A stretch of 64,000 nt of DNA from a virus: positions 16,060 to 80,059 of the IMG/VR virus record IMGVR_UViG_3300013286_000501. The stretch is one strand, 5' to 3'. Both the position numbers and the translations under genes were made by a program. Positions within the stretch are counted from its first letter, which is position 1; every line of letters begins with the position of its first letter. Of the stretch, positions 9,312 through 64,000 are shown in pieces. The notes below the pieces were generated by a model, which did no database searches, was not told where the DNA came from, and worked only from the letters and a program-made list of their open reading frames with translations.

Positions 9312-9559
9312 TGCAATAGTTTTCCAACATGTTCCACTGTGAGCTTATCATCTGGAACAATTTCGGCATTCCACATGATAGCCATAACCAATGCATCTTT
9401 GTTGCTGTCAAACGTAAAGTCCATATACATCTCGTTGGCATGGACAAAAAACTTGCCGCCAGGCAAACCAAATCGTTCAACGGCCCATGCACATACTTCG
9501 TTCCAATAGCCGCCCTTATCTGTTTCGATAGTCCAGGGTATTCTTACGGTTGAGCTCAT
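9308..9559 (-). CDS. Hypothetical protein
   Basis: 83-aa ORF with 4-nt stop/start overlaps on both sides. Confidence 0.65.
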   Translation of the reverse strand: MSSTVRIPWTIETDKGGYWNEVCAWAVERFGLPGGKFFVHANEMYMDFTFDSNKDALVMAIMWNAEIVPDDKLTVEHVGKLLQ

Positions 9560-10314
9560 TTTGTAATCTTTATATTTTTAACATCGGCACACATATTGAT
9601 ATTTTGATCTTTTTCTAAAAACACTTCATGTAAAAAATCAAATTGATATAACTCGTAATTGTTCAAGTCACCTTTAGGTACAATCTTTCTTATCATAGCT
9701 TGGTCAATGACAACATCATAATGTTGATAATCATAGGGTTTATTTTTCATGTGTGATTTTGTATCAACATACTGAACCGGTGCTGTATAGAAGTTTACAT
9801 ATGTATCGTTTTGTATTTGTGGAGGATAATCGTCATACCGATTATCAAAGAGTGCCCACAAGATTGCAGAATATTCATCTGTTATTTTGTTGCGAACGTA
9901 GATTCCTGCTGATAGTTGACCGATACCCGTGCCTGAAAAACTACCGACCTTTGCATCAAAACTTAATACGTAACGATCATTTGCCGGCAATAATAAATTG
10001 GCGCTAAATGCTGTAGCATTGCCGCCGCCTGTTATCGTTTGAAAATCACTGTAATTTTGTTTAATACAACTACTATAGGCATGTGGTTCCCAATGTATTT
10101 GGGCAAGGTTATTTTTAGCGGTGTATCTATCTGATGTTGTAAAATATCCAAGATAATGTGCATGGGCGTTCCAACGATATAGTTCATCACCATGTAATAC
10201 ATCTCCAGAATTACGAACCTGCAATTCTGGATTAACATCATACGGTATATTCAGTTCTGTATTACCTCCACACGAAATCAAAACAGTAGATAACAATGCC
10301 AACAATTTTTTCAT
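9556..10314 (-). CDS. Putative lipoprotein
   Basis: MKKLLALLSTVLISC lipobox-like N-terminus; 252 aa. Confidence 0.6.
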   Translation of the reverse strand: MKKLLALLSTVLISCGGNTELNIPYDVNPELQVRNSGDVLHGDELYRWNAHAHYLGYFTTSDRYTAKNNLAQIHWEPHAYSSCIKQNYSDFQTITGGGNATAFSANLLLPANDRYVLSFDAKVGSFSGTGIGQLSAGIYVRNKITDEYSAILWALFDNRYDDYPPQIQNDTYVNFYTAPVQYVDTKSHMKNKPYDYQHYDVVIDQAMIRKIVPKGDLNNYELYQFDFLHEVFLEKDQNINMCADVKNIKITK

Positions 10315-10323
10315 TTTGTTTCC

Positions 10324-10719
10324 TTAATATAAATGTGGTTCTACTGTGTGTTCATCTTTTAGAATCAGCATGACTTCTTCTTTGTTGGTATAGATCAACT
10401 GATTGTACTCCAAAATAATCCTACGCTGTGCTGGATCGATACCGCACCAGGCATTGATCTTGTCATAACTGCCATGTGCTTCTTCCGGCACAGTATCTCG
10501 GATCCAACCTACTAATGCTTTAAATGCTTCGATAGTATTGCAAGGATGGCTACGTGCTATTGCCTTGGCAAAGTCGTTGGCCAGTACTGCTTCAAAACAA
10601 CTGCCTGGCCTGAATCCCCACACTAGGTAGTTGTAGAAAGGATCGGCAAACTCCTTGGGCACATCCCAACGTTCAAATGTTTGCATCAGTTTGTTTTTAC
10701 TATATTTTGTCAAGTTCAT
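10324..10719 (-). CDS. Hypothetical protein
   Basis: 131 aa; its RBS and start are supplied by the junction repeat at 10716-10736. Confidence 0.7.
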   Translation of the reverse strand: MNLTKYSKNKLMQTFERWDVPKEFADPFYNYLVWGFRPGSCFEAVLANDFAKAIARSHPCNTIEAFKALVGWIRDTVPEEAHGSYDKINAWCGIDPAQRRIILEYNQLIYTNKEEVMLILKDEHTVEPHLY

Positions 10720-10952
10720 TCTTCAACTCCGAAATGTTTTGTAAATCTTTCTTGCCAATCTCGCAACCATTCAATATATTCTGTAGGTCGTTCGCCGGGC
10801 TCAAAACAATGATACGCATCGTCCTCTGCTTGTTCCATCAACCCACACATTTCTTTCACAATCAACTGGGCGAGGATTTCATCATAGATACTACGTGTTT
10901 CGCTACATTTACGGTCAGCCTCTGCCATTAGTTCTTTAATTCGTTCGTTCAT
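10716..10952 (-). CDS. MNERI...HFGVEE family protein, copy 1
   Basis: Conserved start, middle and end boxes. Confidence 0.75.
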   Translation of the reverse strand: MNERIKELMAEADRKCSETRSIYDEILAQLIVKEMCGLMEQAEDDAYHCFEPGERPTEYIEWLRDWQERFTKHFGVEE

Positions 10953-11065
10953 TCTTCAACTCCGAAATGTTTGTTAGGGCGTATGTTTAACATTACTCTA
11001 TTGATTTCATCAACAATATAAAATGCATCGGGTGTACCATATTGTTCAACGATTCCGACACATTC
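10947..11065. repeat. About 119-bp exact direct repeat (second copy about 11836-11954)
   Basis: The 3' halves of copies 2 and 4 are identical in sequence. Confidence 0.9.
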
Positions 11066-11197
11066 TCTCACAATCAACTCGGCGAACTTTCCCTTGTCGA
11101 ACTTATAGTGTTTAACAGTTTTGTGATTATATTGATCAAAAGTTTCGTAAGCAAGTTCCGTAGCCTCATCAGCAAGTTGTCGAATTCGTTCGTTCAT
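10949..11197 (-). CDS. MNERI...HFGVEE family protein, copy 2
   Basis: KFAELIVREC...HFGVEE. Confidence 0.75.
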   Translation of the reverse strand: MNERIRQLADEATELAYETFDQYNHKTVKHYKFDKGKFAELIVRECVGIVEQYGTPDAFYIVDEINRVMLNIRPNKHFGVEE

Positions 11198-11472
11198 AAT
11201 GTTTTACAATAGTCCTTAACTGCCTGGTCAATAACTCGGTTTATGTTGTCGAACAAGTCTTGAGCTTCTTGTGACAGTGCTTTTTCGTATCCACTTTCCC
11301 ATAGCAAGTGTCCCCACTCACGCCAGAACTGTACGGTACGGTACAATCCCTTGCGGGGAATCTTGCCAAACTCTCCGTAGCCGGAAAATTCACCATCATC
11401 GTCCCAGCCACGAAACTGTGGACACTCGCACATGGCCTCATAGCAAGCATCGTGTAATTCTTGTGCTGTCAT
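11194..11472 (-). CDS. Hypothetical protein inserted in the array
   Basis: 92 aa; starts in a junction repeat; unrelated to the paralogs. Confidence 0.65.
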   Translation of the reverse strand: MTAQELHDACYEAMCECPQFRGWDDDGEFSGYGEFGKIPRKGLYRTVQFWREWGHLLWESGYEKALSQEAQDLFDNINRVIDQAVKDYCKTL

Positions 11473-11735
11473 TCTTCAACTCCGAAATGCTCTTTAATCG
11501 TTCTAACACATCCATTAGCGGCACTACGCACATCATTCAATCGACCATCTTGGATAATAGCAGTAGCACATTCTCGCACAATCAACTCGGCGAACTTTTG
11601 ATTGAATTGTGTATGCCAACCCACGTGTCCATCTTCCCAAATCTTGCCCGGAGTTTTACTTCTAACAGGTCCGGTATATGTTTCATTCACATAGTCACCA
11701 GCCTGTTTACTAAGTTTTCTAATTTGTTCGTTCAT
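11469..11735 (-). CDS. MNEQI...HFGVEE family protein, copy 3
   Basis: Same three boxes. Confidence 0.75.
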   Translation of the reverse strand: MNEQIRKLSKQAGDYVNETYTGPVRSKTPGKIWEDGHVGWHTQFNQKFAELIVRECATAIIQDGRLNDVRSAANGCVRTIKEHFGVEE

Positions 11736-11841
11736 TCTTCAACTCCGAAATGTTTTTACATTTATGAAATGGCATAATGCGGCCAAGCCAGCCAATAAGT
11801 TCGCCACATGTTTGGCAACAATATGATGGATATTTGTTCAT
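11719..11841 (-). CDS. 40-aa Cys-containing ORF in the array
   Basis: MNKYPSYCCQTCGELIGWLGRIMPFHKCKNISELKNERTN; starts in one junction repeat and reads the next in a different frame. Confidence 0.5.
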   Translation of the reverse strand: MNKYPSYCCQTCGELIGWLGRIMPFHKCKNISELKNERTN

Positions 11842-12080
11842 TCTTCAACTCCGAAATGTTTGTTAGGGCGTATGTTTAACATTACTCTATTGATTTCATC
11901 AACAATATAAAATGCATCGGGTGTACCATATTGTTCAACGATTCCGACACATTCCTGAACAATCAACTCGGCGAACTTTTCTCTATCAAATTTAGCATAG
12001 GAACTTGAATAACCTTGTGAATTAACCGTATCTACAATGGTAGTAGCCTGTTCAGCAAGTTCTCGAATTTGTTCGTTCAT
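11838..12080 (-). CDS. MNEQI...HFGVEE family protein, copy 4
   Basis: Same three boxes. Confidence 0.75.
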   Translation of the reverse strand: MNEQIRELAEQATTIVDTVNSQGYSSSYAKFDREKFAELIVQECVGIVEQYGTPDAFYIVDEINRVMLNIRPNKHFGVEE

Positions 12081-12083
12081 ATG

Positions 12084-12908
12084 TCATACCTCAAAGTAAA
12101 AGCCAGGAATAAATTGATCACCTTCCCAAGGAAGGTATCCCCTAGGATTACTAATGATCCGTGTAGAGCCAATCATAAAATTTACCGGGTCATGCATGTG
12201 CCCGTGGCACCACACCTTGATGTTTTCGTTGTCAAGGATGAACTCACTCATGTCACTGGCATAGGCACCATTGCTGGTAGTTTCATGTTTATACTTTTCA
12301 TTTATACTCATGTAGCTGGGAGCCATATGTGTAATAACCACAAAAGGTTTATCTCTGTTCATTTCCAACACAGCCTTAAAATACTGTTTGGTCTTACGAT
12401 GAATAGCCACTGTATGTTCCGGTGTCAATTTATGATAGAGACTTTTAGCAGGATAGAAGTTTTGAATAACCTGGTAGTCATTCATAAAACTTCTCATAGA
12501 ATGAACAGTGATAGGATCACCCTTGTTCATATCGGTCCATAATGTAGCACCCATGAACATAACACCTTCATACTCTACTACCTCATCTTCCAGAATGGTC
12601 ACGTTGGGGGGCATCAAGGATTTTAAATCATTATAAGTTTTATCCAATCTATGATGATAGAATTCGTGATTTCCCAGCACATAGAACACTTTCTTATATT
12701 TGGCACATTCGTGATAAAAGAAATCATAGGCATTCAATCCACCGGGAGTATAGGGAATTACTCGAGTGCTATGAAAGTCCTTTTTGAGAGTTCGGTATTC
12801 ACAGATATCTCCGGCCAATATCAATAGATCTCCCCCAGGAAGTGATTGGTATCCAAACTCAAGGTGAAGATCGGAAACAAGAGATATGTTAAGTTTAGTG
12901 TGCGTCAT
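12084..12908 (-). CDS. Calcineurin-like metallophosphoesterase
   Basis: SDLH, LAGD, GNHE, THMAP, HGHMH, NPRGY motifs. Confidence 0.9.
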   Translation of the reverse strand: MTHTKLNISLVSDLHLEFGYQSLPGGDLLILAGDICEYRTLKKDFHSTRVIPYTPGGLNAYDFFYHECAKYKKVFYVLGNHEFYHHRLDKTYNDLKSLMPPNVTILEDEVVEYEGVMFMGATLWTDMNKGDPITVHSMRSFMNDYQVIQNFYPAKSLYHKLTPEHTVAIHRKTKQYFKAVLEMNRDKPFVVITHMAPSYMSINEKYKHETTSNGAYASDMSEFILDNENIKVWCHGHMHDPVNFMIGSTRIISNPRGYLPWEGDQFIPGFYFEV

Positions 12909-12914
12909 GTTAAT

Positions 12915-12943
12915 ATTATACAGGAAAACCACAAAAAAGTCAA
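12915..12943 (-). promoter_or_regulatory. sigma70-like promoter driving the phosphoesterase and cassette array
   Basis: TTGACT-17-TATAAT. Confidence 0.7.
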
Positions 12944-15401: not shown

Positions 15402-16155
15402 CGTCTTTCTCCTTGGTCCAAGTTATGATTTCCCAATGACCATCCCAGTGTTCGACTAGGGCAGTGCATGACTCAACCCAGTCACCGTCATTCATATAAA
15501 TGATGCCATCTATATCTTTTATTTCAGCATGGTGTATATGTCCACATATCACACCATCGAATCCACGCTTCTTGCAATAGGCTGCTAGATTATGTTCAAA
15601 CTTGAACATAAAATCTACTGCCTTCTTTACTCTGTGCTTAAGATATTTGCTAATACTAAAGTACCCAAAACCAAAACGATGGCGTATCCAATTGAACTTA
15701 CTATTGAGCGAAAGAATGACATCATATGCTTTATCTCCTAAAAATGCTAGCCATGGCGCTAGTCTTGTAATGCCGTCAAATAGATCACCGTGGACTACGA
15801 GGTAGTGCTTACCGTCAGCACCTATATGTTCTATTTGATTATGTATTTCTACTAGACCAAAACTGAAACCGTATGTAATTAATGGACGAAGAAATTCGTC
15901 ATGATTTCCTGCAACATATATAACACGGGTACCACGCTTACTGTGCCCAAGGACACGCCTAACAACATTAGTATGGCTTTGTTTCCATCTCCATTTGTTT
16001 TGTTGGATTCGCCACGCATCAATAATGTCTCCTACTAAGTAGAGGGTATCACAAGTATTGTGTTTAAGAAAATTGTTTAACTTTTCCGCTTGGCTATCTT
16101 TGGTTCCGAGATGAATGTCAGAAATGAAAATGCTACGATAAGTTTTGGTTTTCAT
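15268..16155 (-). CDS. PlcP/LpxH-like metallophosphoesterase (phospholipase C-like)
   Basis: YRSIFISDIHLGT, YLVGDIID, GNHDEFLR, HGDLFD, CGHIH, YMNDGDWVESCTALVE; adjacent to a GT4 gene. Confidence 0.85.
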   Translation of the reverse strand: MKTKTYRSIFISDIHLGTKDSQAEKLNNFLKHNTCDTLYLVGDIIDAWRIQQNKWRWKQSHTNVVRRVLGHSKRGTRVIYVAGNHDEFLRPLITYGFSFGLVEIHNQIEHIGADGKHYLVVHGDLFDGITRLAPWLAFLGDKAYDVILSLNSKFNWIRHRFGFGYFSISKYLKHRVKKAVDFMFKFEHNLAAYCKKRGFDGVICGHIHHAEIKDIDGIIYMNDGDWVESCTALVEHWDGHWEIITWTKEKDDVADDINSSTPDGSAGSTRQDRTKVRGSKNLRTSIEHNEVESKV

Positions 16156-27016: not shown

Positions 27017-27217
27017 TCATTTTACAAATCTCGGCATACGATCTTCGGTGCCAGCGTATTGAAAGTTATCCAACATAGGCACAAGACTGGCCATGTCACT
27101 GGCAGGGTGGCGATAAATTTCTTTTAAGTCGGCACCGTCGATCAACATGAAATACAACTTGGTTGTACCTTCATCAACTTGTGGCTTAAAAATATATTCC
27201 AAATCTTCTAAAATCAT
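27017..27217 (-). CDS. Hypothetical protein
   Basis: 66 aa; AAGGA RBS. Confidence 0.6.
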   Translation of the reverse strand: MILEDLEYIFKPQVDEGTTKLYFMLIDGADLKEIYRHPASDMASLVPMLDNFQYAGTEDRMPRFVK

Positions 27218-27470
27218 AATGTTTCCTTAATAACACACCAAATGAAAGAGCACTTGCATACCTTCTAGGGCATATACAACCCGTTTACAACTATACAACC
27301 TTACGCCTCTTTCCTGACCCAGGCTTCTCAGTGTGTGTTAAATTTACTCATCATAGGGTTTCAAAAAATCGTCTCCCTCTGAATCTTCATCAAACTTTGA
27401 CCAATCGTAAGTAGCTACGGCGTAGGCCCAATATCCTACCAATCCGATCATTATTACTACCAGTAATAGA

Positions 27471-32405: not shown

Positions 32406-32870
32406 TTAACTTTCTGTTATTCTTTTCACACGCACAGCCCAGTTGCCACGTAGGGCAAAATACAATCCACCAATCCAAAGACTGAAGTGTAAGTAGTCAG
32501 TGAGAATAAACTGTAGGATGCTTTCTGGTTTCAACACTGTCCAGATCACACCAGTGGCCACACAGCACATCACAATGCCGCTGAATCTGGTGACAACATC
32601 GCCCAGTTCTGCCAAGATGCTGATGTCTCTGATTCGGGGCAGGGTTGGCACAGCACCTGCCAACAGGCCCACACCAGCGCCAATCTCACTCACAATAACA
32701 AACAGCCACACCATGGCGGGCAAGCCAAATGCTTCTCCACCCCCAGCATCGTAGGGCAGTTTGCTGAGACCCTGCGTAATGAATACAAGGGCAAGTGGTA
32801 TGCGTAACAAGATGTGGCTCCAGTCAAAGTCTGGTAGTCGTTGCCAATAGTTTTTAAATATGTTTGTCAT
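32406..32870 (-). CDS. DoxX-like membrane protein
   Basis: LLRIPLALVFITQGLSKL...SEIGAG; four TM helices. Confidence 0.7.
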   Translation of the reverse strand: MTNIFKNYWQRLPDFDWSHILLRIPLALVFITQGLSKLPYDAGGGEAFGLPAMVWLFVIVSEIGAGVGLLAGAVPTLPRIRDISILAELGDVVTRFSGIVMCCVATGVIWTVLKPESILQFILTDYLHFSLWIGGLYFALRGNWAVRVKRITES

Positions 32871-33001
32871 GGTTCAACTCCGAATAGTTTCACTGGGTGC
32901 CCATTCATCTGAACAGTCCAATGATTCTTATAAAGTATAGGGACAAAACACAAGGTCATCCCAATCATGCAAAATACAAACGCCTTTAATAGTTCTTTCA
33001 T
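32867..33001 (-). CDS. 44-aa ORF ending in a junction-repeat-like box (FGVEP)
   Basis: Ends TTCGGAGTTGAACCATGA, overlapping the DoxX start. Confidence 0.5.
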   Translation of the reverse strand: MKELLKAFVFCMIGMTLCFVPILYKNHWTVQMNGHPVKLFGVEP

Positions 33002-33017
33002 TTTGTTTCCTTAATTG

Positions 33018-33552: not shown

Positions 33553-33849
33553 TTATTTCATTGTGGCTGTGTAGGCCGCAATGTTTTTAATATCGTCAGC
33601 GCTCAGCGCACCAGCCATACCCCACATGAGAGCACTTTGTGGACCACGCTGTTCTTTGTTTTTGTAGGCTGTGAGTTTTTGTACAATCACTTCTGGCTTC
33701 TGTCCTGCCAACTTGGGACCTGCTCCGCCTTGACCTTGAGCACCATGACAGGCCGCACAGGTGGCATATTTGGCCTTGCCCAGATCGGCATTCTGTGCCT
33801 GGGCTGGAACTGATAACGCTACAAGAGAGGCTACTACGAGATATTTCAT
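33553..33849 (-). CDS. Class I cytochrome c (c553-like)
   Basis: Signal peptide, CAACHG, PKLAGQ, distal Met, LSADDIKNIAAY. Confidence 0.92.
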   Translation of the reverse strand: MKYLVVASLVALSVPAQAQNADLGKAKYATCAACHGAQGQGGAGPKLAGQKPEVIVQKLTAYKNKEQRGPQSALMWGMAGALSADDIKNIAAYTATMK

Positions 33850-33869
33850 TTTGTTACCTTTATTAAAAA

Positions 33870-52427: not shown

Positions 52428-55400
52428 TTATCGTGGTTTAGGTGGCGTCGTAGGTGGCGTAAAGGCAGTAATGTAACGTACTGTACCATTAGCAAACCGT
52501 AGATCGTCGATATAGCCATTCCAAAAATCAGTGGGTGTATTGGAATCTGTTGCTCCTACAAGCACCGGAGCGTTTGAAATACCAATTGTACCAGATGCAG
52601 TACCCGTAGTTGCATCTACAACGCCATTTACAAATAATCTCACCGTCGTGCCAGATCTAGTAACAGCAACATGAGTCCATTGATTGGCTGAAACTGTTGT
52701 TGTAGTACCGGTTAATGTATTAGTAACGCCAAGATACCATACCAATACTAATCTGCTTGACACTACTTTAAAAATGAATTGTAGATTTGATGTCGCCCAT
52801 CGAGAGATAATAGAATTATTAGCACCGTTAAGTGTAGAATAGACCCATGCTTCAATAGTAAAATCACCAGTCATGAGAAACGCTGGGTTGCTAGGTATAG
52901 TCAAATAATCCCCAGCACCATCAAAATACATAAGACTAGAATTATATTTCTTAATTGTAGTAGTCAATGATCTAGCATCGCCTACTGTGGATAGATTACT
53001 CTGCATACTGGCATCGGTGACCGCAGCATCAGTCATGTTTAATAACAATGCAGTGTTAGGTGCTGCCCGTAATGGTGCAGTTGTTGGTGTAAAGTTAGAA
53101 GTGTAAAGTGCAGTACCGTTAATGACACGAAAATCAGATAGATAGAATACTCCTGAGCTACCATCCGGTCCTATAATTCTATTGGCTGTACCAGCATAAT
53201 TATTTGTGTCGGCCGCAGAAAAAACTTGCACTCCATTAATAAATCCTTTTGTCACTGAACTAGCTCTGGATATTGCGATGTGCGTCCATGCATATAATGG
53301 AACTGTTCCGCCGGTTTGTAGATTACTGCTGTTAAATTGCCAATATAGAGCATTACCAAATACTACGACTCCCCAAGAACTCGGTATTGTATAGGAAATA
53401 TTCTGAGCCGATGCCGATGCATATATCCAACATTCGACTGAAAAGTCTCTAGTACCAAACACTAAAGCAGGAGTATTTGGCACATTCAAATAATCTCCCA
53501 CTGCATTAAAATATGTACTGCCGCCAATAACACCTTTGTTATAGCCTTGGTTAGGGAATGGAGTGAATCGACTTATACTAGGGGTACCTGCTGTGGTAAA
53601 GGTAGAAGTATTGCTAATAGTAACTCCACTGACATCGTTAAATCTGTTTGAGGCACAGGCTAATAAAAATATATTTGCTGGTAGGTTAAGTGGTAGAGTA
53701 GGAGCAGTAAATGATGTAGTATAAAGTGCTGTCCCTTTTAGAATACGCAGATTGGATATATAACCATTAAATGTGGAACCTGTGTTATCCCCAAATATTC
53801 TACCAATTGTTATAACCGGCGTAGCTGACCAAGTTGGTGATACACTATTTGTAAACACTGATACACCATTTAAATATAGTGTGTTTGTAGTGCCCGAACG
53901 CACAAAAGCAATATGTTGCCATGCATTAATAGTTATACTATTAGTTGTTGTATATACAGTAGTGTTACCGGCAACAAAAAATGTTAGCTTTGCAGCGGTT
54001 GTTACATATAGAGCAAACCCGGCGGCACTTGAACTAACTGTGGCATTAATGCCAATGATACCCTCTTGGGCCGCCACTGATGTTGTGTATATCCAGCATT
54101 CAATAGTAAAATCGGCGGTCAATTGATTTGCTGCCGATGCTGGCGATGTCAAATAATCCGTGCTACCGTTAAAGAATACACTCCAGTTTGCCCCATATGG
54201 TGAGAATGAGCCTTGAGCAGGAGTACCTGTGGGTGTTACTAAATTCTTAAACGGACCATAGTCGAAGACTGATGTGTTCTTGGCTGCGACTGATGTCTGC
54301 AGAGTCAACAACTGTGTAGCAGTTGTAGCAGTTAACGGTAAGGTTGGGACTACAAAGTTTGTGGTGTATAGGGCCTGACCTCGTATGATTCGAACATTTG
54401 ACATATAGCCAATAAAGACACTAGCACCACTAGCATCTGAACCAACTCTTACCGGACCATTATTGCCTAGCGTGGCTGCATTAGCATCAGTGGTTCCTAA
54501 TACAACACCGTTTAGATAACCTCTAATAGTTGTACCAACCCTTATAACAGACACATGTGTCCAAGCGTTGATAGGTATAGTGCCGCCCATTGTTACAGAA
54601 CCGCTGCCGAATATGTTAGTTACTAGCGCACCGTTTGTTATAACAATCACGTAACGAGAAGTAGCTTCAGTTCCAAGTGCTAATAAGTTAAAGGACCCAG
54701 TAACGTTGGTTGGATAAATCCACATCTCAATTGTAAAATCAGCGGTTAATGTAATATTAGATGTTGCAGTGGTTACAATTAAGTAATCCCCAGTGCCGTC
54801 AAAATATGCACTACCAATGTTGGTTGTCACAGCTCCTGTAGTATAACCAAACGGGTTGATATCCACAGCCTTTGCACCGCTCACAACTGTCAATGTATTA
54901 CTAAAGGTACTGACGTCGACTATTCTATCAGACTGAGCAGTTAGCAATACTGTAGCAGTAGTTGCGGTCAATACTGCGGTTGGTGGAGTAAAGTTACCTG
55001 GTGCAAATGAAATAGATCCAGTTGCTGTGAATATGTATACTATGTTGCCGCCAGTGTTGGCTATTGTAGGACTTCCAGTAACTGTCGCAGTTGAGATAGT
55101 GTTTGGGTGAGCAATGATTACTACACCGGATCCCCCCGCTCCACCACCGCCTTGACTATAATTGCCACCACCACCACCGCCACCTGTAAAAGATGTTCCG
55201 TTAGATCCCGGGGCACCACTAGTTGGCCCACCACCTCTTCCACCACCTCCAACGCCGCCAGATGCGGCAGGCGAACTTCCAGTGTATTGAGCACCGCTGC
55301 CGCCGCCGGCGAACCAAACTGTTCCACTACTAACTTGGCCAACACTTAAGGTAGTTGCCAATGATGTAGAAATAATAGATGTGTATGTACCAGCACCGCC

Positions 55401-58400
55401 ACCGCCTGATACGCCGCTGGCCAATCCGTCTACACCGGGACCGCCTGCACCACCACCGCCACCTGTTGGATATGAATTTAAACCCTTACCACTTCCACCT
55501 GCATTGCCCTGCCCGGCAGTTCCGGCCGCGCCCGGATAAGTTGTGTTGGTTTCACTCGATCCAGCACCACCACCCGATCCACCAATTGATGGAAGATTAG
55601 TACCGGCACCAATGTACGATCCGCCGCCACCTCCACCGATTGCAGTTATTGAAAGTCCGGCGCCTAAAATAACACTATTAGTGCCAGTTGAACCAGCAGC
55701 ATTATTTACTCCGGTAGCTGTGGCTCCTGCACCCACCGTGATAACAACTGTTCCACCAGATGAAATAGTAGCACTACTAGCTAATAATCCACCAGCACCG
55801 CCACCACCAGCAAGTGATCCGCCACCACCACCGCCACCTGCAACCACTAGGTAGTTAATAGGAACTGACACACTAAGTGGTAGCGGATATAATGCTGTGC
55901 CTTTTACAATACGCAGATTGGAGATATATCCCGGAATATAGAATGCTCCAGTATCAAATCCTCTACCAATATATATTGAATTATTTCCGTTGCTCCAGTT
56001 TGTAGAATCAGTTCCCGAATAATATGAAATTCCGTTAATGAATATTCTTAAAGTTCCACTAGATTTAGTAGCCGCAAAATGAAACCATGTGTTAGCAGTA
56101 GGCGTTATACCACTAGTTGCTACATGTGAAGTTCCGTTATACACAGTAAATGAATTTGGAAATGCTCCGCCGGCATTGAATACGTTAAATGCACCCGGGA
56201 TAGCAGTTCCCGAACCCCGCAAATCTAGGAATGTACCTTGCGTAGGAACGCTTGTTAAATATGCCCAAAATTCAACTGTCCAATCACCTGTTCCAAATAC
56301 TAGATTTGTATTTCCTGTAAATGACAAATAATCTGTATTACCATTAAAACTGATTGCATAACTGTTCGCTGCTCTAGTTATAGTGCCCGGAACCAGGAAT
56401 GGAGTATTCTGTGCAATCTGCGGAGTACCGGCTAGGGTTAATGTTGTTACTATAGTTGCATAACTTGTATCGATAAATCTACTGCTTTGAGCAGTTAATA
56501 GTGATGTAGTAGTTGTGATAGCAGCAATGTTTGTACCAGAATTCTGAGTCACAGTCAGTGGGGCTGTTGGGGGAGTAAATGTCCCAGTGTATACTGCGGT
56601 ACCTTTTACTACTCGTAGATTGGATATGTAACCATTAAGTGTAGAAATTGTGTTATCTCCATACATTCTACCAATTGTTATAACCGGTGTAGCTGACCAA
56701 GTCGGTGATACACTATTTGTAAACACCGATACACCATTTACATATAGCGTATTTGTGCTACCTAACCGGACAAAAGCAATATGTTGCCATGCATTAATAG
56801 TTATACTATTAGTTGTTGTATATACAGTAGTGTTACCAGCAACAAAAAATGTTAGTTTTCCAGTGGTCTCTATATATAGAGCAAAACCGGCGGAGCCTGA
56901 ACTAACTGTGGCGTTTATGCCAATGATACCTTGTTGAGTTGTTATTGAGTTTGGGTATATCCAGCATTCAATGGTAAAGTCGGCGGTTAGTTGATTTGAT
57001 GCTGCTGCCGGCGATGTCAAATAATCCGTGCTACCGTTAAAGTAGTTGCTATAATAACCGTGATTGTATGGATTAAATGTGTAGGGGCGTGTGTCGCCTA
57101 GAATAGATATCAATGCTGTGTTGGTGCTGGCATCAGTGACAAATGATGCAACGGTTGATTGATTGCTCAACAGTAATGTGTTGGATGTAAAGTTTGGATC
57201 ATACGGAACAGTATTAGGATTGGCTAGATATCGTATGATAACAATACCACTACCACCATTACCTCCGACAGTTGTAGAAGAGCCATTTCCGCCACCGCCA
57301 CCACCGGTATTTGGTGTAGCGGAGGCGCCATTGGAAGAGGCGCCGCCACCTAGACCACCAGCTAATCCAACACCACCACCAGCGCCACCGCCTGCGTAAT
57401 AGATAAGAGCACCTGCTAATGTATAAGGTAATCCTGCACCACCTGCACCACCTGCTGCACTGGCATTGGAACCAACTGCACCAGCGCCACCACCACCACC
57501 ACCATTACGATATGTGCTACTATCAGTACCACCTTGACCACCAGCATTACCTTGTCCTGCGGTGCCTGCGCCGCCAGCATAGTTGCCCGCGTTTAGATAA
57601 GCGCCACCGCCACCACCAGAACCGCCAGCACTACCGGGCAACGGACCAACACCACCTGCACCACCACCTAGTGTGGTTAGATAGGTAGTGTTAAATGGAC
57701 TCAGTGTATTAATACTGGGACTACCAGTAAGTGTTAAGTTATTTCCGCCAGCAGTATCTACAGGCACAGTAGATGCAGTTGTTGGGGCAATTAATAATAC
57801 GGTATTAGTGACAGATGTTAATGGAATTGTGCTCGGGGTAAATGTTGCAGTATATAATGCTGTTCCATTTATTATACGAAGATTGCTAATATATCCAGTC
57901 CAATAACTAGGTGTGCTCATTGCACCGACAGTAAGTCCTCCCTGTGATAAACTATAACCACTAGGAGTTCCACTAGTTGTAAATGCTGTAGAAACACCAT
58001 TAACAAATAGTCTCATTACGCCGGCGGCTCTAGTTACTGCAACATGATACCATGTTCCTGCACTAAAGGCAGTTGTTGTAACAACACTGAATCCGCCGCT
58101 ACTATGTGTTCCAAAGAATAATCCACCACCTGCAAAAGCAAACCACCATTTGTTGTTTGTAGATGAACCTAAAGCATCACTTTGGGCTATGGGTAAATTG
58201 GCACCAGGAGCCACCGAGCTATTGACCCATGCCTCAACGGTGAAATCACCTGTGCCAAAAGCAAATGTAGCATTACTTGCGGCACTCAAATAATTACTGC
58301 CGTTAAAGGCAACACTTGTGGCACCTGTTACAGATTGTAGAGAAAAAGAACTATTGCCACCGTTGGTAGCATTACCCCCACCGGCACCTACTGTAATAAT

Positions 58401-58703
58401 ATAGACACTGGACGCAGCAAATGTAAACGTGCTAGAATACAATAGACCACCTGCACCACCACCACCACCTCGGTTATCTTGACTTGCACTACCCGCAGAT
58501 CCACCACCACCACCGCCTGCTACCACCAGCATTTCTAATGATGAAATAGCTGTGGTTGCAGTCAGTATGCCCGATGATGTAAAGATGTGAGTATTGTAGG
58601 CAACTCCGTTAACGTAGGTTGCGGTAAATGTTCCACCGACCAATGTGCTGGCCGCAGGTGGAACGTATCTCTGGCGTTTGATGATGCCTAAATCGTAAGT
58701 CAT
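52428..58703 (-). CDS. Giant Gly-rich, multi-LamG (concanavalin A-like) fibre/receptor-binding protein
   Basis: 2091 aa; repeated DFTIECW...WxHIA...GYISNLR LamG units and VAGGGGGG...GGSGIVII Gly-rich domains. Confidence 0.85.
53750..54174. repeat. Near-identical internal LamG duplication (partner about 56617-57042)
   Basis: About 425-bp copies with long identical DNA runs. Confidence 0.85.
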
Positions 58704-60662: not shown

Positions 60663-63600
60663 TTAGCCTAGGCCTGCGCATACCTGTGTGCTAGGGAATT
60701 TGCGGGCTTGTCCTGGCCATACAACACGAACTGCCCCACCACCACCGGCACCACCACTGGCGGCACTGGTACCTCCAGCACCTACTACCACAGTATATGC
60801 AGTACCAGAAGTTACAGGAAACGAATTGATATAAGCTAATCCACCGCCGGCTCCACTGGCAAAACCTATGTTGGTTGAGGGAGTGTTGCCTGATCCACCA
60901 CCACCACCGTAGTTGCCACCTTTACCGGCACTAACAGTATATGGCGAACCATCAGTTCCGCCACTGCCCCCATAACCGCCAGCATGTCCTAAAGTGATAT
61001 TTGATCCCCCTGCACCATTACAACCTTGTCCAAATAATCCAACACCGCCACCGCCGCCGGGGCCGCATACACTAACTCCGCCAGAACCGCCAGCACCGCC
61101 AGAGCCGGCAGTACCGTTTGCACTAGTGTTACGTACACCGTCACCACCTGCACCACTATAACCACCGGCACCGCCACCAGATGCAGCCATTAAGCCGCTA
61201 CCACCGGCACCAAAACCGCCATTATATCCAATAAATCCTGTAGCACCTGTATTGAGTCCGGGGCCGGCCCATGATCCGCCTGCAGTACCACCGCTGCCGA
61301 TGCCAGTATTAGAGACAGTACCTTGTTTTCCCGCGCCTGCTTGTAGTATTGAAGTACCGACAAAATAACTTGGACTTCCTACACCAGAAAAATTACACTG
61401 GGTTCCGTAACTAATAGCACCTGCTCCGCCACCGCCCACAGCAACAATACTGACTGAAGTTACGTTAGCAGGTGCGACCCAACTATATGTTCCCGGTGTA
61501 GTATAGGACGTGCTGCTTGATAGAACAAGAGTAGTAGCACTGTTTGACGCTGTAGAGAATGCACTGTTTCCCACTAGATTAGTTGCATACATTTGGAAAG
61601 TGTATGTTGAAAATAATGGCAGTCCGGTGAATACAATAACACCACTATTAGTAAATGACGTCGTGGTACTTAATGTAATATTGCCCGGAGTCGATACCGC
61701 AGTGTAAGAAATAATTGGTAAAAATCCTGTATTCTGCGGACCAGTAAATGAAACAATAATTGATCCGGTTGATGTATTTGCAAATCCTGCAGCACTTGTT
61801 ATTGTAGGTGCATCTGGCACTGTATATTTAGATAATAAACCAGAGTTGATGTTAGATACACAGAAGGATGGGAATCTACGTAGATTGCCCGGCCATACTA
61901 TACGCACTGCGCCCCCGGCTCCGGCAGCACCGCCGGGGTAAGTTTGGCATCCCGGAATGCCACCATTGCCAACAGTTACGGTATATGATCCTGAAACTGT
62001 GTAATTATTAAGGTAGACTAATCCTCCTCCACCACCCCCTGTGTCACAAGCGCGGCAGGTCGAGCCGGCGCCGCCGCCACCGTATAAACCACCTACTCTA
62101 GTAGTATGTACGCCAACTCCGCCGCCTTGGCCGCCTGAACCTCCGCCAGGTACACAAGTATTGAGGTGTTGAGCTAGACCGTTTGGTCCAATACCGTATA
62201 TACCAACACCGCCACCACCACCGTTACAATTTCCACCCCCACCACCACCTCCGACACCGCTAGTAGCATTGGCAGTTAATCCGCCATTACCGCCGGGTCC
62301 CGCATAACCGGCCGCACCACCGCCACCAAACCTGTTTGCTCCAGATGAACCACCACTATTGACAACTGTTCCAGCAGGGCCGGATCCTGAACCGCCAGTT
62401 GCAGTTACGCCCATGGAGCCGCCGGATCCCGCAGATGCTACTAATATTGTAGTAGCAGACGGGGTATAAACAAATGTGCTAGCAGCGCCGGTAACCCCGG
62501 GAACCATCGCGGTGCTAGGGCCCTTTTGCTCGCCGCTGCCGCCGCCACCAACTAGCAATAGGCTAACTGAAGTTACGCCCGCAGGTGGAAGCCAACTGTA
62601 TGATCCTGCTACAGTATAAACTGACTCACCAAATGCATATGGATATACAATAGATGCTGTACTAATTGTTCCTGTTGATCCCACAACGTTTACTGCATAT
62701 ACTGTAGCTGTGTAGGTTAATGTATTATCAGGGATACCAGTAACTATAACGGTATTGGACGCAGTTGTAGTAGTTGATAACGATGCTGTATAATTGCCAG
62801 GTTGTACTCTAGCAACATAAGATGCTACCGGACCGGCTCCACCCGAGTTATCTGGACCAATAAATGTCACAGCTATGCTCGAAGTGCTGGCAAATGTGGA
62901 ACTTGTTATTGTGGGAATCCCGGGAGCAGTAGGAGTATATGCGGTAGTTGCACTTGGACTATTTCCCGCAACGTTTGTTCCATATAGGGTAATAGTTGCA
63001 CTGTTGGCAAAGTTAAAACTATTGTTTGAGATTACCAGTGTAGCCGAACCACTGGTCAATGACGATGATGTTGTTATGCTGTAACCACCAACAGCCAATG
63101 TGTAAGAACCGTTGTATAATTGTAGGTTAGTGGTCAAGCTGGGAATGGTATATGTTACAGACAAGCTGGTTGGACTTGATACAGTGTAACTTGAGATAGT
63201 CGGAGCAGCAGTGACTGAATATGAAGATGTTGTTAGAACACTGCAATTAACTACCTGTGTTAATGGAAATGCTCTGTTTACACCCCATAATACTCTACCA
63301 CCGCCGCGAGCACCGGATACACCGCTAGTAGAACCACCCCCACCACCAACTACCAGTGTGTAAGTATTACCCGGAATTGTCCCATAACCGTTTGCATAGG
63401 CTAAATTGCCGCCACCACCACCTACACCAGTAGTATTAGATCGAGCGCTGCCGCCACCATAAAGGCCGGGTGTTCCGCCATTGTTAACACCAACAAGGCC
63501 GCAACCTCCCACAGTTCCGCCACTACCACCCAACCCACCTGACCCAGCGCCGCTGGGGTTTACTGCGCCGCCGGCGCCGTTAGCGCCTTGTCCAAATAAT

Positions 63601-64000
63601 CCAACACCACCACCACCACCACCACGGTTATCAGTGGTGGCATAACCGCCACCACCACCACCACCACCGGTGCCTGCTGATCCATTACCAAGGCCGCCCT
63701 GCCCTGAATATCCAGCAGCACCTTGACCACCAAAGCCGCTACCGGATGTGGTATTATTTGTACCACCGTTATTTCCCCCGCCCGACAGTGCAGATCCACC
63801 GATTACGGCACCAGTGGCGCTGGCAGATCCAGCACCACCGCCGCCCCCACCAGCATTTAGTACAGTTGCGCCGTTAAATGTACTAGCACCTCCATTGCAG
63901 CCGCCAGTGTTGCCATAGCCACCGCCACCGCCACCTACGACAACAACAGCTACTCTGGTCACACCAGCAGGAGCTACCCAACTGTTACTGCCAGCCGCAG
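60663..64000 (-). CDS. Gly-rich FN3-containing fibre protein (5' end outside window)
   Basis: Repeated SWVAPAGVTSVSxVxVGGGG...VRxVW units alternating with APTI...YAxNxVG FN3-like units; frame open to the edge. Confidence 0.82.
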   Translation of the reverse strand, partial: AAGSNSWVAPAGVTRVAVVVVGGGGGGYGNTGGCNGGASTFNGATVLNAGGGGGGAGSASATGAVIGGSALSGGGNNGGTNNTTSGSGFGGQGAAGYSGQGGLGNGSAGTGGGGGGGGYATTDNRGGGGGGVGLFGQGANGAGGAVNPSGAGSGGLGGSGGTVGGCGLVGVNNGGTPGLYGGGSARSNTTGVGGGGGNLAYANGYGTIPGNTYTLVVGGGGGSTSGVSGARGGGRVLWGVNRAFPLTQVVNCSVLTTSSYSVTAAPTISSYTVSSPTSLSVTYTIPSLTTNLQLYNGSYTLAVGGYSITTSSSLTSGSATLVISNNSFNFANSATITLYGTNVAGNSPSATTAYTPTAPGIPTITSSTFASTSSIAVTFIGPDNSGGAGPVASYVARVQPGNYTASLSTTTTASNTVIVTGIPDNTLTYTATVYAVNVVGSTGTISTASIVYPYAFGESVYTVAGSYSWLPPAGVTSVSLLLVGGGGSGEQKGPSTAMVPGVTGAASTFVYTPSATTILVASAGSGGSMGVTATGGSGSGPAGTVVNSGGSSGANRFGGGGAAGYAGPGGNGGLTANATSGVGGGGGGGNCNGGGGGVGIYGIGPNGLAQHLNTCVPGGGSGGQGGGVGVHTTRVGGLYGGGGAGSTCRACDTGGGGGGLVYLNNYTVSGSYTVTVGNGGIPGCQTYPGGAAGAGGAVRIVWPGNLRRFPSFCVSNINSGLLSKYTVPDAPTITSAAGFANTSTGSIIVSFTGPQNTGFLPIISYTAVSTPGNITLSTTTSFTNSGVIVFTGLPLFSTYTFQMYATNLVGNSAFSTASNSATTLVLSSSTSYTTPGTYSWVAPANVTSVSIVAVGGGGAGAISYGTQCNFSGVGSPSYFVGTSILQAGAGKQGTVSNTGIGSGGTAGGSWAGPGLNTGATGFIGYNGGFGAGGSGLMAASGGGAGGYSGAGGDGVRNTSANGTAGSGGAGGSGGVSVCGPGGGGGVGLFGQGCNGAGGSNITLGHAGGYGGSGGTDGSPYTVSAGKGGNYGGGGGSGNTPSTNIGFASGAGGGLAYINSFPVTSGTAYTVVVGAGGTSAASGGAGGGGAVRVVWPGQARKFPSTQVCAGLG

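Follow-up and report, generated by a model that had tools for sequence, protein, structure and literature searches.

Promoter-early stem-loop (PeSL) cassettes of T4-type phages are intergenic repeats, each of which carries a sigma-70 promoter and a terminator stem-loop, and recombination between them explains insertions, deletions and replacements among related phages (Arbiol et al. 2010, PMC2839356). In the gp38 adhesins of T-even phages, glycine-rich conserved motifs, which form the structural core, alternate with interchangeable hypervariable segments (Trojet et al. 2011, PMC3157838). These are the nearest described systems to the array of small genes analyzed here, which lies at positions 10324-12080 of a 64,000-nucleotide stretch of viral DNA (called the window below; positions 16,060 to 80,059 of the IMG/VR record IMGVR_UViG_3300013286_000501). 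The whole record is 80 kb long and its completeness is rated by CheckV at about 22% only, which implies that the phage genome is large. As in the PeSL cassettes, short repeats are found at gene boundaries amid small genes of unknown function and, as in gp38, conserved motifs alternate with easily swapped variable segments. The array contains four paralogous genes, P1 to P4, which share three conserved blocks and, as judged from comparisons with viral contigs numbering in the hundreds, both gene halves and whole genes are exchanged at these blocks.

Each gene of the family has a constant-variable-constant-variable-constant layout, in which a start block, a first variable half (V1), a mid block, a second variable half (V2) and an end block succeed one another (the individual copies in the window are called boxes). 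The start block ATGAACGAACRAATT encodes MNE(R/Q)I and the mid block AAGTTCGCCGAGTTGATTGT encodes KFAELIV. The end block is a 21-mer, CATTTCGGAGTTGAAGAATGA, whose minus-strand reading is CAT TTC GGA GTT GAA GAA TGA, that is H-F-G-V-E-E-stop. The original prediction, made from the letters of the window alone, had pointed to five exact 21-bp repeats at gene junctions, and these are indeed found as exact minus-strand copies at 10716, 10949, 11469, 11732 and 11838, where none would be expected by chance. No further copy appears in the window at up to three mismatches, none of 100 shuffled sequences yields any copy, and these five are also the only copies in the whole 80-kb record. In all five end boxes GGAG is followed by a 7-nucleotide spacer and an ATGA stop/start overlap, in agreement with the predicted provision of the next gene's ribosome-binding site and start codon and, in four cases, of the upstream stop. 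The Shine-Dalgarno sequence GGAG and the ATG of the next gene are located inside the upstream coding sequence; together with the stop/start overlap, these are features that would be expected of a translationally coupled operon. All copies of the boxes, five of the end box and four each of the mid box and the start box, are direct repeats on one strand.

The array is read on the minus strand and begins with P4 (80 amino acids, 11838-12080; start box 12066-12080, mid box 11959-11979, end box 11838-11858). It continues with a 40-amino acid open reading frame (ORF) of the CxxC/HxC kind (11719-11841), P3 (88 amino acids, 11469-11735; start box 11721-11735, mid box 11578-11598, end box 11469-11489), an unrelated 92-amino acid ORF (11194-11472), P2 (82 amino acids, 10949-11197; start box 11183-11197, mid box 11070-11090, end box 10949-10969) and P1 (78 amino acids, 10716-10952; start box 10938-10952, end box 10716-10736). 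The start and mid boxes stand where they had been placed, including the degenerate mid box of P1, at about 10858-10878. The four genes match one another, with the three constant blocks in order, a length of about 70-100 amino acids and a significant profile match. Four of the 21-mer copies close P1 to P4 in frame. The fifth, at 11732-11752, is read out of frame by the 40-amino acid ORF, and the own frame of this box has a TAA two codons upstream. The presence of unrelated ORFs slotted in at the same junction was also borne out, since the 92-, 40- and 131-amino acid ORFs (the last one at 10324-10719), none of which is related to the family, start at box ATGs. The 92-amino acid ORF starts at the ATG of the P3 end box, and its stop forms an ATGA overlap (TTATGA) with the start of P2; it has no Pfam match, one weak PHROG hit and no homologue among the fetched loci. 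The 40-amino acid ORF starts at the P4 end-box ATG. Its homologue in locus L007 (84% amino acid identity) likewise has its start at the ATG of an end box and continues across a junction that has diverged, GGGTTGGAGTTGACAAATGAAC. The many synonymous differences between these two homologues indicate that this ORF is a real gene. Where L007 has GGGTTGGAGTTGACAAATGAAC, the window has the exact consensus block, which looks like a conversion to the consensus. The predicted identity of the 3' halves of P2 and P4 corresponds to a 119-nucleotide exact run (10947-11065 = 11836-11954), which is followed by four mismatches, an identical 21-nucleotide mid box and then divergence.

The conservation of all three blocks extends to synonymous sites, where rare codons are often used. 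Among 183 genes encoding KFAELIV, the mid block uses AAG in 92%, TTC in 83%, GCC in 87%, GAG in 89%, TTG in 93% and ATT in 98% of cases, against a background of 35, 24, 22, 23, 30 and 63%, respectively, in the variable halves of these genes. The Val codon after the mid block is free at its third base, and the mid-block codon bias persists when only one gene per locus is retained. In the start block, AAC is used at 90% (background 34%), CGA at 86% (20%) and CTT at 76% (17%). For the end block, the codon count is unbiased at synonymous sites because the loci were fetched by peptide patterns only: CAT, GGA, both GAA codons and TGA are each found in 40 of 40 cases, GTT in 39 and TTC in 29. Shared ancestry was controlled for by a pair test, in which gene pairs from different loci share a module (a variable half) at 40-80% amino acid identity. 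Where two residues are identical, their codons also agree with a frequency of 0.46-0.58 in the modules versus 0.75-0.91 in the blocks of the same pairs. Non-homologous alignments give 0.41-0.50, which is close to the modules, and the modules are thus near synonymous saturation. Such a test of synonymous sites had been called for when the array was first described; the blocks turn out to be far more conserved than the modules of the same gene pairs, and ordinary protein-level conservation is not what is seen.

The two halves recombine widely in the sample. The 344 genes that could be split fall into 240 V1 clusters and 177 V2 clusters, with one full set of four V1/V2 combinations present. One V1 type is found with 14 V2 cluster partners. 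The commonest V2 type, which is that of P1, has 82 members and is joined to 55 different V1 types; the V1 half of P1 recurs with four other V2 halves, and its mid-block variant, ILAQLIV, travels with its V1 type. When the V1 halves of two genes are at least 90% identical at the nucleotide level, their V2 halves are unrelated in 13 of 15 pairs; reciprocally, V1 is unrelated in 15 of the 17 pairs with V2 at least 90% identical. Identity is lost, in these recently shared modules, within -28 to +11 nucleotides of the 30-nucleotide mid region. Every module of the window that has a relative in the sample has a different partner there. For example, the V1 half of P4 shows 91% nucleotide and 95% amino acid identity to that of a gene in L008 whose V2 half is unrelated, and the V1 half of P3 is found again in L031, L101, L145 and L149, with a different V2 partner each time.

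Turnover of whole genes can be followed in the nearest relatives, L151-153 and L154/155. The slot occupied by the array holds, in these loci, two family genes with halves unlike any of the four window paralogs. DNA homology with L151 and L154 breaks at window positions 12066/12045, inside the start box of P4, and restarts at 10739/10744, at the last end box. In a more distant relative, L157, the phosphoesterase gene and the 131-amino acid gene that flank the slot are adjacent, without any array. The comparison of cassette content among relatives, which had been proposed as a check, thus yields an order that is not fixed and breakpoints at the start and end boxes in L151-155. Synonymous conservation, mid-box breakpoints, array turnover and the attachment of unrelated ORFs all go in the direction of the original prediction that the boxes are exchange and translational-coupling joints.

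The end block behaves as a portable joint. Among the end blocks of other loci (n = 313, up to two mismatches in 18 nucleotides), 220 stand at the end of a family gene, 50 stand at the end of another ORF, and 38 are orphans whose frame is closed a short way upstream. In several of these 50 ORFs, a clearly unrelated body ends in ...KEHFGVEE. On the downstream side, the gene starting at the end-block ATG is a family member in 89 cases and a non-family gene in 196 (159 clusters). In L007, an end-block-like core, GGAGTTGA..AATGAAC, precedes the start codon after a non-family gene. The window itself provides another case, far from the array: a 44-amino acid membrane-like (hydrophobic) ORF (32867-33001, minus strand) ends in ...KLFGVEP-stop, with a degenerate sixth end box, TTCGGAGTTGAACCATGA, and has an ATGA overlap onto the next gene, which encodes a 154-amino acid membrane protein. 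The joint is therefore used outside the array too.

The family is very large, unnamed and restricted to viruses, and it is known only from uncultured ones. A profile built from the four paralogs, which have no Pfam or PHROG family match, gives more than 7,100 protein matches among 8,000 candidates scored, none of which has a name or a Pfam domain; the database members follow the layout described above and re-use discrete variable halves. A degenerate end-box pattern is found in at least 120 viral contigs, often with two to six copies each, and up to 11 family genes occur in one locus. No DNA or protein match was obtained in the 50,697 GenBank phage records, and a literature search with the motif strings HFGVEE and FAELIV returned no relevant paper. 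Among 185,579 genomes of prokaryote species, the only cellular records with the family are two contigs of metagenome-assembled genomes (MAGs), one of Haliscomenobacter (L189, 183 kb) and one of a Lake Erken Bacteroidetes (L190). Both contigs are probably of phage origin and were binned with the MAGs; on this basis, freshwater Bacteroidota are possible hosts.

In the AlphaFold2 model of P1 (predicted local distance difference test score of 84), the chain is predicted to form a two-helix hairpin, with a long first helix that contains the start block, V1 and the mid block, and with V2 extending over the turn and the second helix. This model has no PDB match better than E = 1.9. A structural match to TerB (atlas, TM score 0.65) was considered as a lead to function and set aside, the fold being too simple to inform. 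The 27 longer relatives correspond to tandem units or to read-throughs into neighbors such as the Lar-like zinc ribbon (PF14354); in the 208-amino acid database protein P0132, for instance, a family member is fused through stop loss to this Lar-like restriction-alleviation zinc ribbon. This gives a weak hint that the arrays sit among anti-restriction genes, which is not used as evidence here. From the hypervariability and rapid turnover of the halves, one might guess that the family proteins are variable binders of host or defense factors engaged in an arms race.

The explanation favored here, with a probability of roughly 0.68, is that general short-homology recombination acts at the blocks and that the end block has a second role as a translational-coupling joint. 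The blocks would act as near-identical DNA tracts of 15-30 nucleotides, common to the paralogs of one genome and to many other phages. General homologous recombination or annealing would use them as micro-homologies, within a genome or between co-infecting phages, and the enzymes involved could be those of the phage or of the host. V1 and V2 halves would be swapped at the mid block, and whole genes would be swapped, added or deleted at the start and end blocks; tandem paralogs could also exchange within a genome, as the P2/P4 tract may exemplify. Repeated exchange and gene conversion would keep the blocks identical, synonymous positions included, whether selection favors exchangeable blocks or exchange simply maintains them, and exchange may proceed at a measurable rate during infection. 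The end block would close one gene and supply GGAG, the 7-nucleotide spacer and the overlapping ATG in unstructured mRNA. Since it brings the start signals of the next gene, any ORF joined there should be translationally coupled, and each gene would hand the ribosome to the next one.

Several points weigh against this explanation. No recombination event has been observed directly, the evidence for exchange being comparative, and tracts of 15-24 nucleotides are at the low end for general recombination. No recombination gene of any kind is found in the 80-kb record, which represents about 22% of the genome. The sequences share ancestry, which means that binomial P values overstate significance and that the pair test is the fairer control. 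Ribosome binding accounts for part of the nucleotide conservation seen in the end block, and the mid block may have an RNA- or DNA-level function other than recombination. Finally, the protein function and the early expression proposed here are conjectural.

A function at the RNA or translation level, such as coupling, a site for a translational repressor or an endoribonuclease, or antisense pairing, could alone conserve the blocks, module exchange being then a by-product. This is unlikely, even if GGAG, the 7-nucleotide spacer and ATGA are present in essentially every end-block copy, a similar core recurs after the non-family gene of L007, and the junctions are unstructured, as expected of an open initiation site. 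Indeed, rare codons are kept at 76-93% in the mid and start blocks, for which no role in translation is apparent, and end-block positions outside GGAG and ATG (CAT, GTT) are fixed as well. RNA folding of six junction and mid-box stretches gives z values of -1.0 to +1.1 relative to shuffles (-0.2 to +1.1 for the junctions alone), and RNA structure was rejected as the cause of box conservation because no fold is stronger than the shuffles. Moreover, recently shared modules nearly always have different partners, which indicates that exchange is frequent and not incidental. A promoter or terminator inside the boxes, of the PeSL kind, was also rejected, with only weak promoter matches (9/12) and no terminator-like site in the array.

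The same partner changes argue against ordinary tandem paralogs diverging in place, with the blocks as a conserved protein core and the exact repeats as traces of recent duplication. Tandem duplication does occur, as seen from the 119-nucleotide tract of P2 and P4, and the blocks are also conserved as protein, probably as the scaffold of the helical hairpin. However, more than 100 unrelated contigs keep non-preferred codons at the synonymous sites of the blocks, in contrast to the saturation of homologous modules, a given half is found with many different partners, which vary in length, and the slot content is replaced between relatives with 80-89% identical flanks. Divergence in place is thus already contradicted by the codon, pair, breakpoint and synteny results, and it is the least probable of the explanations considered.

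Very improbable too is a dedicated system recognizing the blocks, either site-specific, as in integrons or shufflons, or nuclease-driven and of the homing type, with its enzyme encoded in the unsequenced 78% of the genome. The exact repeats, their sharp boundaries, the attachment of the end block to unrelated ORFs and the orphan blocks would all fit, and a possible target is the core TTCG(N0-2)GAGTTGA, shared by the mid and end blocks. This shared core, first noted as TTCG(CC)GAGTTGA and taken as a sign of DNA-level constraint, is real, although it goes only weakly beyond chance (68 of 5,000 shuffles reach it) and is possibly due to chance. One can imagine, with equally little probability, an enzyme encoded elsewhere that cuts or pairs this core, the array being a programmed cassette exchange that builds combinatorial libraries of host-targeting proteins during infection. 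The search for such an enzyme was negative: no tyrosine recombinase (PF00589, with positive controls), serine recombinase or resolvase, RecA or reverse transcriptase (RVT_1) was found in the 80-kb record, which extends to the whole record the earlier remark that no recombinase is visible in the window. As only about 22% of the genome is covered, this absence is weak evidence. Among 150 array loci on other contigs, no neighbor gene is present in more than 10%, and no recombinase or nuclease recurs; the commonest neighbors, each at 10% of the loci at most, are a FEN-type exonuclease, a phosphoesterase, a phosphatase, a ligase, a kinase and ribonucleotide reductase. No inverted repeat or attC-like hairpin was detected at the boxes, all repeats being direct, and the mid-block breakpoints spread over about 40 nucleotides instead of falling at one position. 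The integron- or shufflon-like mechanism initially suggested is thus not supported, and the analogy holds in effect only, as neither a hairpin or inverted repeat at the boxes nor, in the 80-kb record, an integrase, a resolvase or a reverse transcriptase was found. Compared with a site-specific mechanism, general homologous recombination between short stretches of identical sequence is the simpler account of the data.

The genes of the window are almost all on the minus strand, and nearby genes include dnaK, both ribonucleotide reductase subunits and a ClpX-like ATPase. The upstream anchor of the slot is a calcineurin-like metallophosphoesterase gene (12084-12932, minus strand; Pfam PF00149 and phrog_1649), whose ATG is likely at 12908 and which is 89% and 80% identical in the relatives L151-155. 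Just upstream of this gene, a consensus scan identifies a candidate sigma-70-like promoter, TTGACT-17-TATAAT (12915-12943, minus strand), with 11 of 12 consensus matches, which is the probable start of the transcription unit containing the array. No terminator-like site was found on the minus strand from 12915 to 10324. The 131-amino acid ORF at 10324-10719 (minus strand) is the conserved downstream anchor; it starts at the last end-box ATG and its homologues show 74-80% amino acid identity in L151-155 and L148, and 63% in L157. From this layout, the four family paralogs and the three interleaved unrelated small ORFs probably form one sigma-70-driven operon behind the phosphoesterase gene, and the array is probably a single polycistronic unit, expressed early.

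Other features were observed around the array and elsewhere. In more distant relatives, the slot downstream of the phosphoesterase gene is occupied by a different family of tandem small genes, seen in L156 (6836-7814) and L159 (7294-8927), and also in L151 (8348-8609) and L154 (5728-5995); the products of this second mini-gene array all share the tail ...F(I/L/T)L(R/K)W(S/L). Beside the array, a 252-amino acid lipoprotein-like gene (9556-10314) is missing from both close relatives, in which homology breaks at 10311 and restarts at about 9550-9563. No relative of this gene was found in viral contigs, so it appears as a window-specific insertion. A second repeated translation start region, TATTAAGGAAACAAAATGA, is present on the minus strand at 10311-10329, 27214-27232, 32998-33016 and 33846-33864. 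It precedes four genes, two of which have signal-peptide-like starts: the 252-amino acid gene and a 98-amino acid c-type cytochrome-like ORF (33553-33849). Farther away, two very large ORFs (2091 and more than 1100 amino acids, at 52428-58703 and 60663-63998) are full of glycine-rich repeats, with internal repeats of about 600-700 nucleotides and a 300-nucleotide pair at 85% identity (53689/56557).

If short-homology exchange at the blocks is confirmed, the array will stand as a clear example, found in nature, of a gene family built to recombine, in which two interchangeable halves fit into a constant scaffold and any ORF can be added at a translation joint that is complete in itself. With thousands of members and hundreds of module types, this family would offer a testable model for the renewal of the sets of small early proteins in large phages. 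Small early phage proteins are the usual source of anti-defense and host-takeover functions. The layout could in addition provide a scaffold, ready for use, on which to build combinatorial libraries of small binders. In addition, nucleotide conservation that extends to rare codons calls for caution in annotation and in selection tests which assume neutral synonymous sites.

How the array relates to known exchange systems can now be specified. Like integron cassettes, it consists of promoterless small genes in a row behind one promoter, with a repeat at each junction and a content varying between relatives. Unlike integrons, it has no IntI integrase in the 80-kb record and no attC-like imperfect inverted repeat, and its joints are inside the coding sequence. 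Shufflons, with their Rci recombinase and sfx repeats, similarly let alternative protein ends combine through short repeats. They operate, however, by inversion between inverted repeats, with a tyrosine recombinase and within one cell line, whereas the array has direct repeats, no recombinase was found, and its variation is seen between genomes. Diversity-generating retroelements involve a reverse transcriptase and template/variable repeats with adenine-only differences; in contrast, the halves of the array vary in length and cannot be aligned, and no RVT_1 domain was found. The resemblance to PeSL cassettes goes further, since the repeat carries expression signals for the downstream gene and since content changes between related phages are bounded by the repeats, as in L151 and L154. 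The repeats of the array are nevertheless coding, without promoter or stem-loop, the joint is translational instead of transcriptional, and a third repeat inside the gene gives two exchangeable halves. As for gp38, it is a single virion gene involved in receptor binding, whereas the array is a multi-copy set of non-structural proteins of about 80 amino acids with no sequence similarity to it, and one of its joints doubles as a gene-to-gene coupling signal. The array extends the idea behind PeSL cassettes and gp38 from gene boundaries and one adhesin gene to the interior of a multi-copy family: it works like both systems and is a member of neither.

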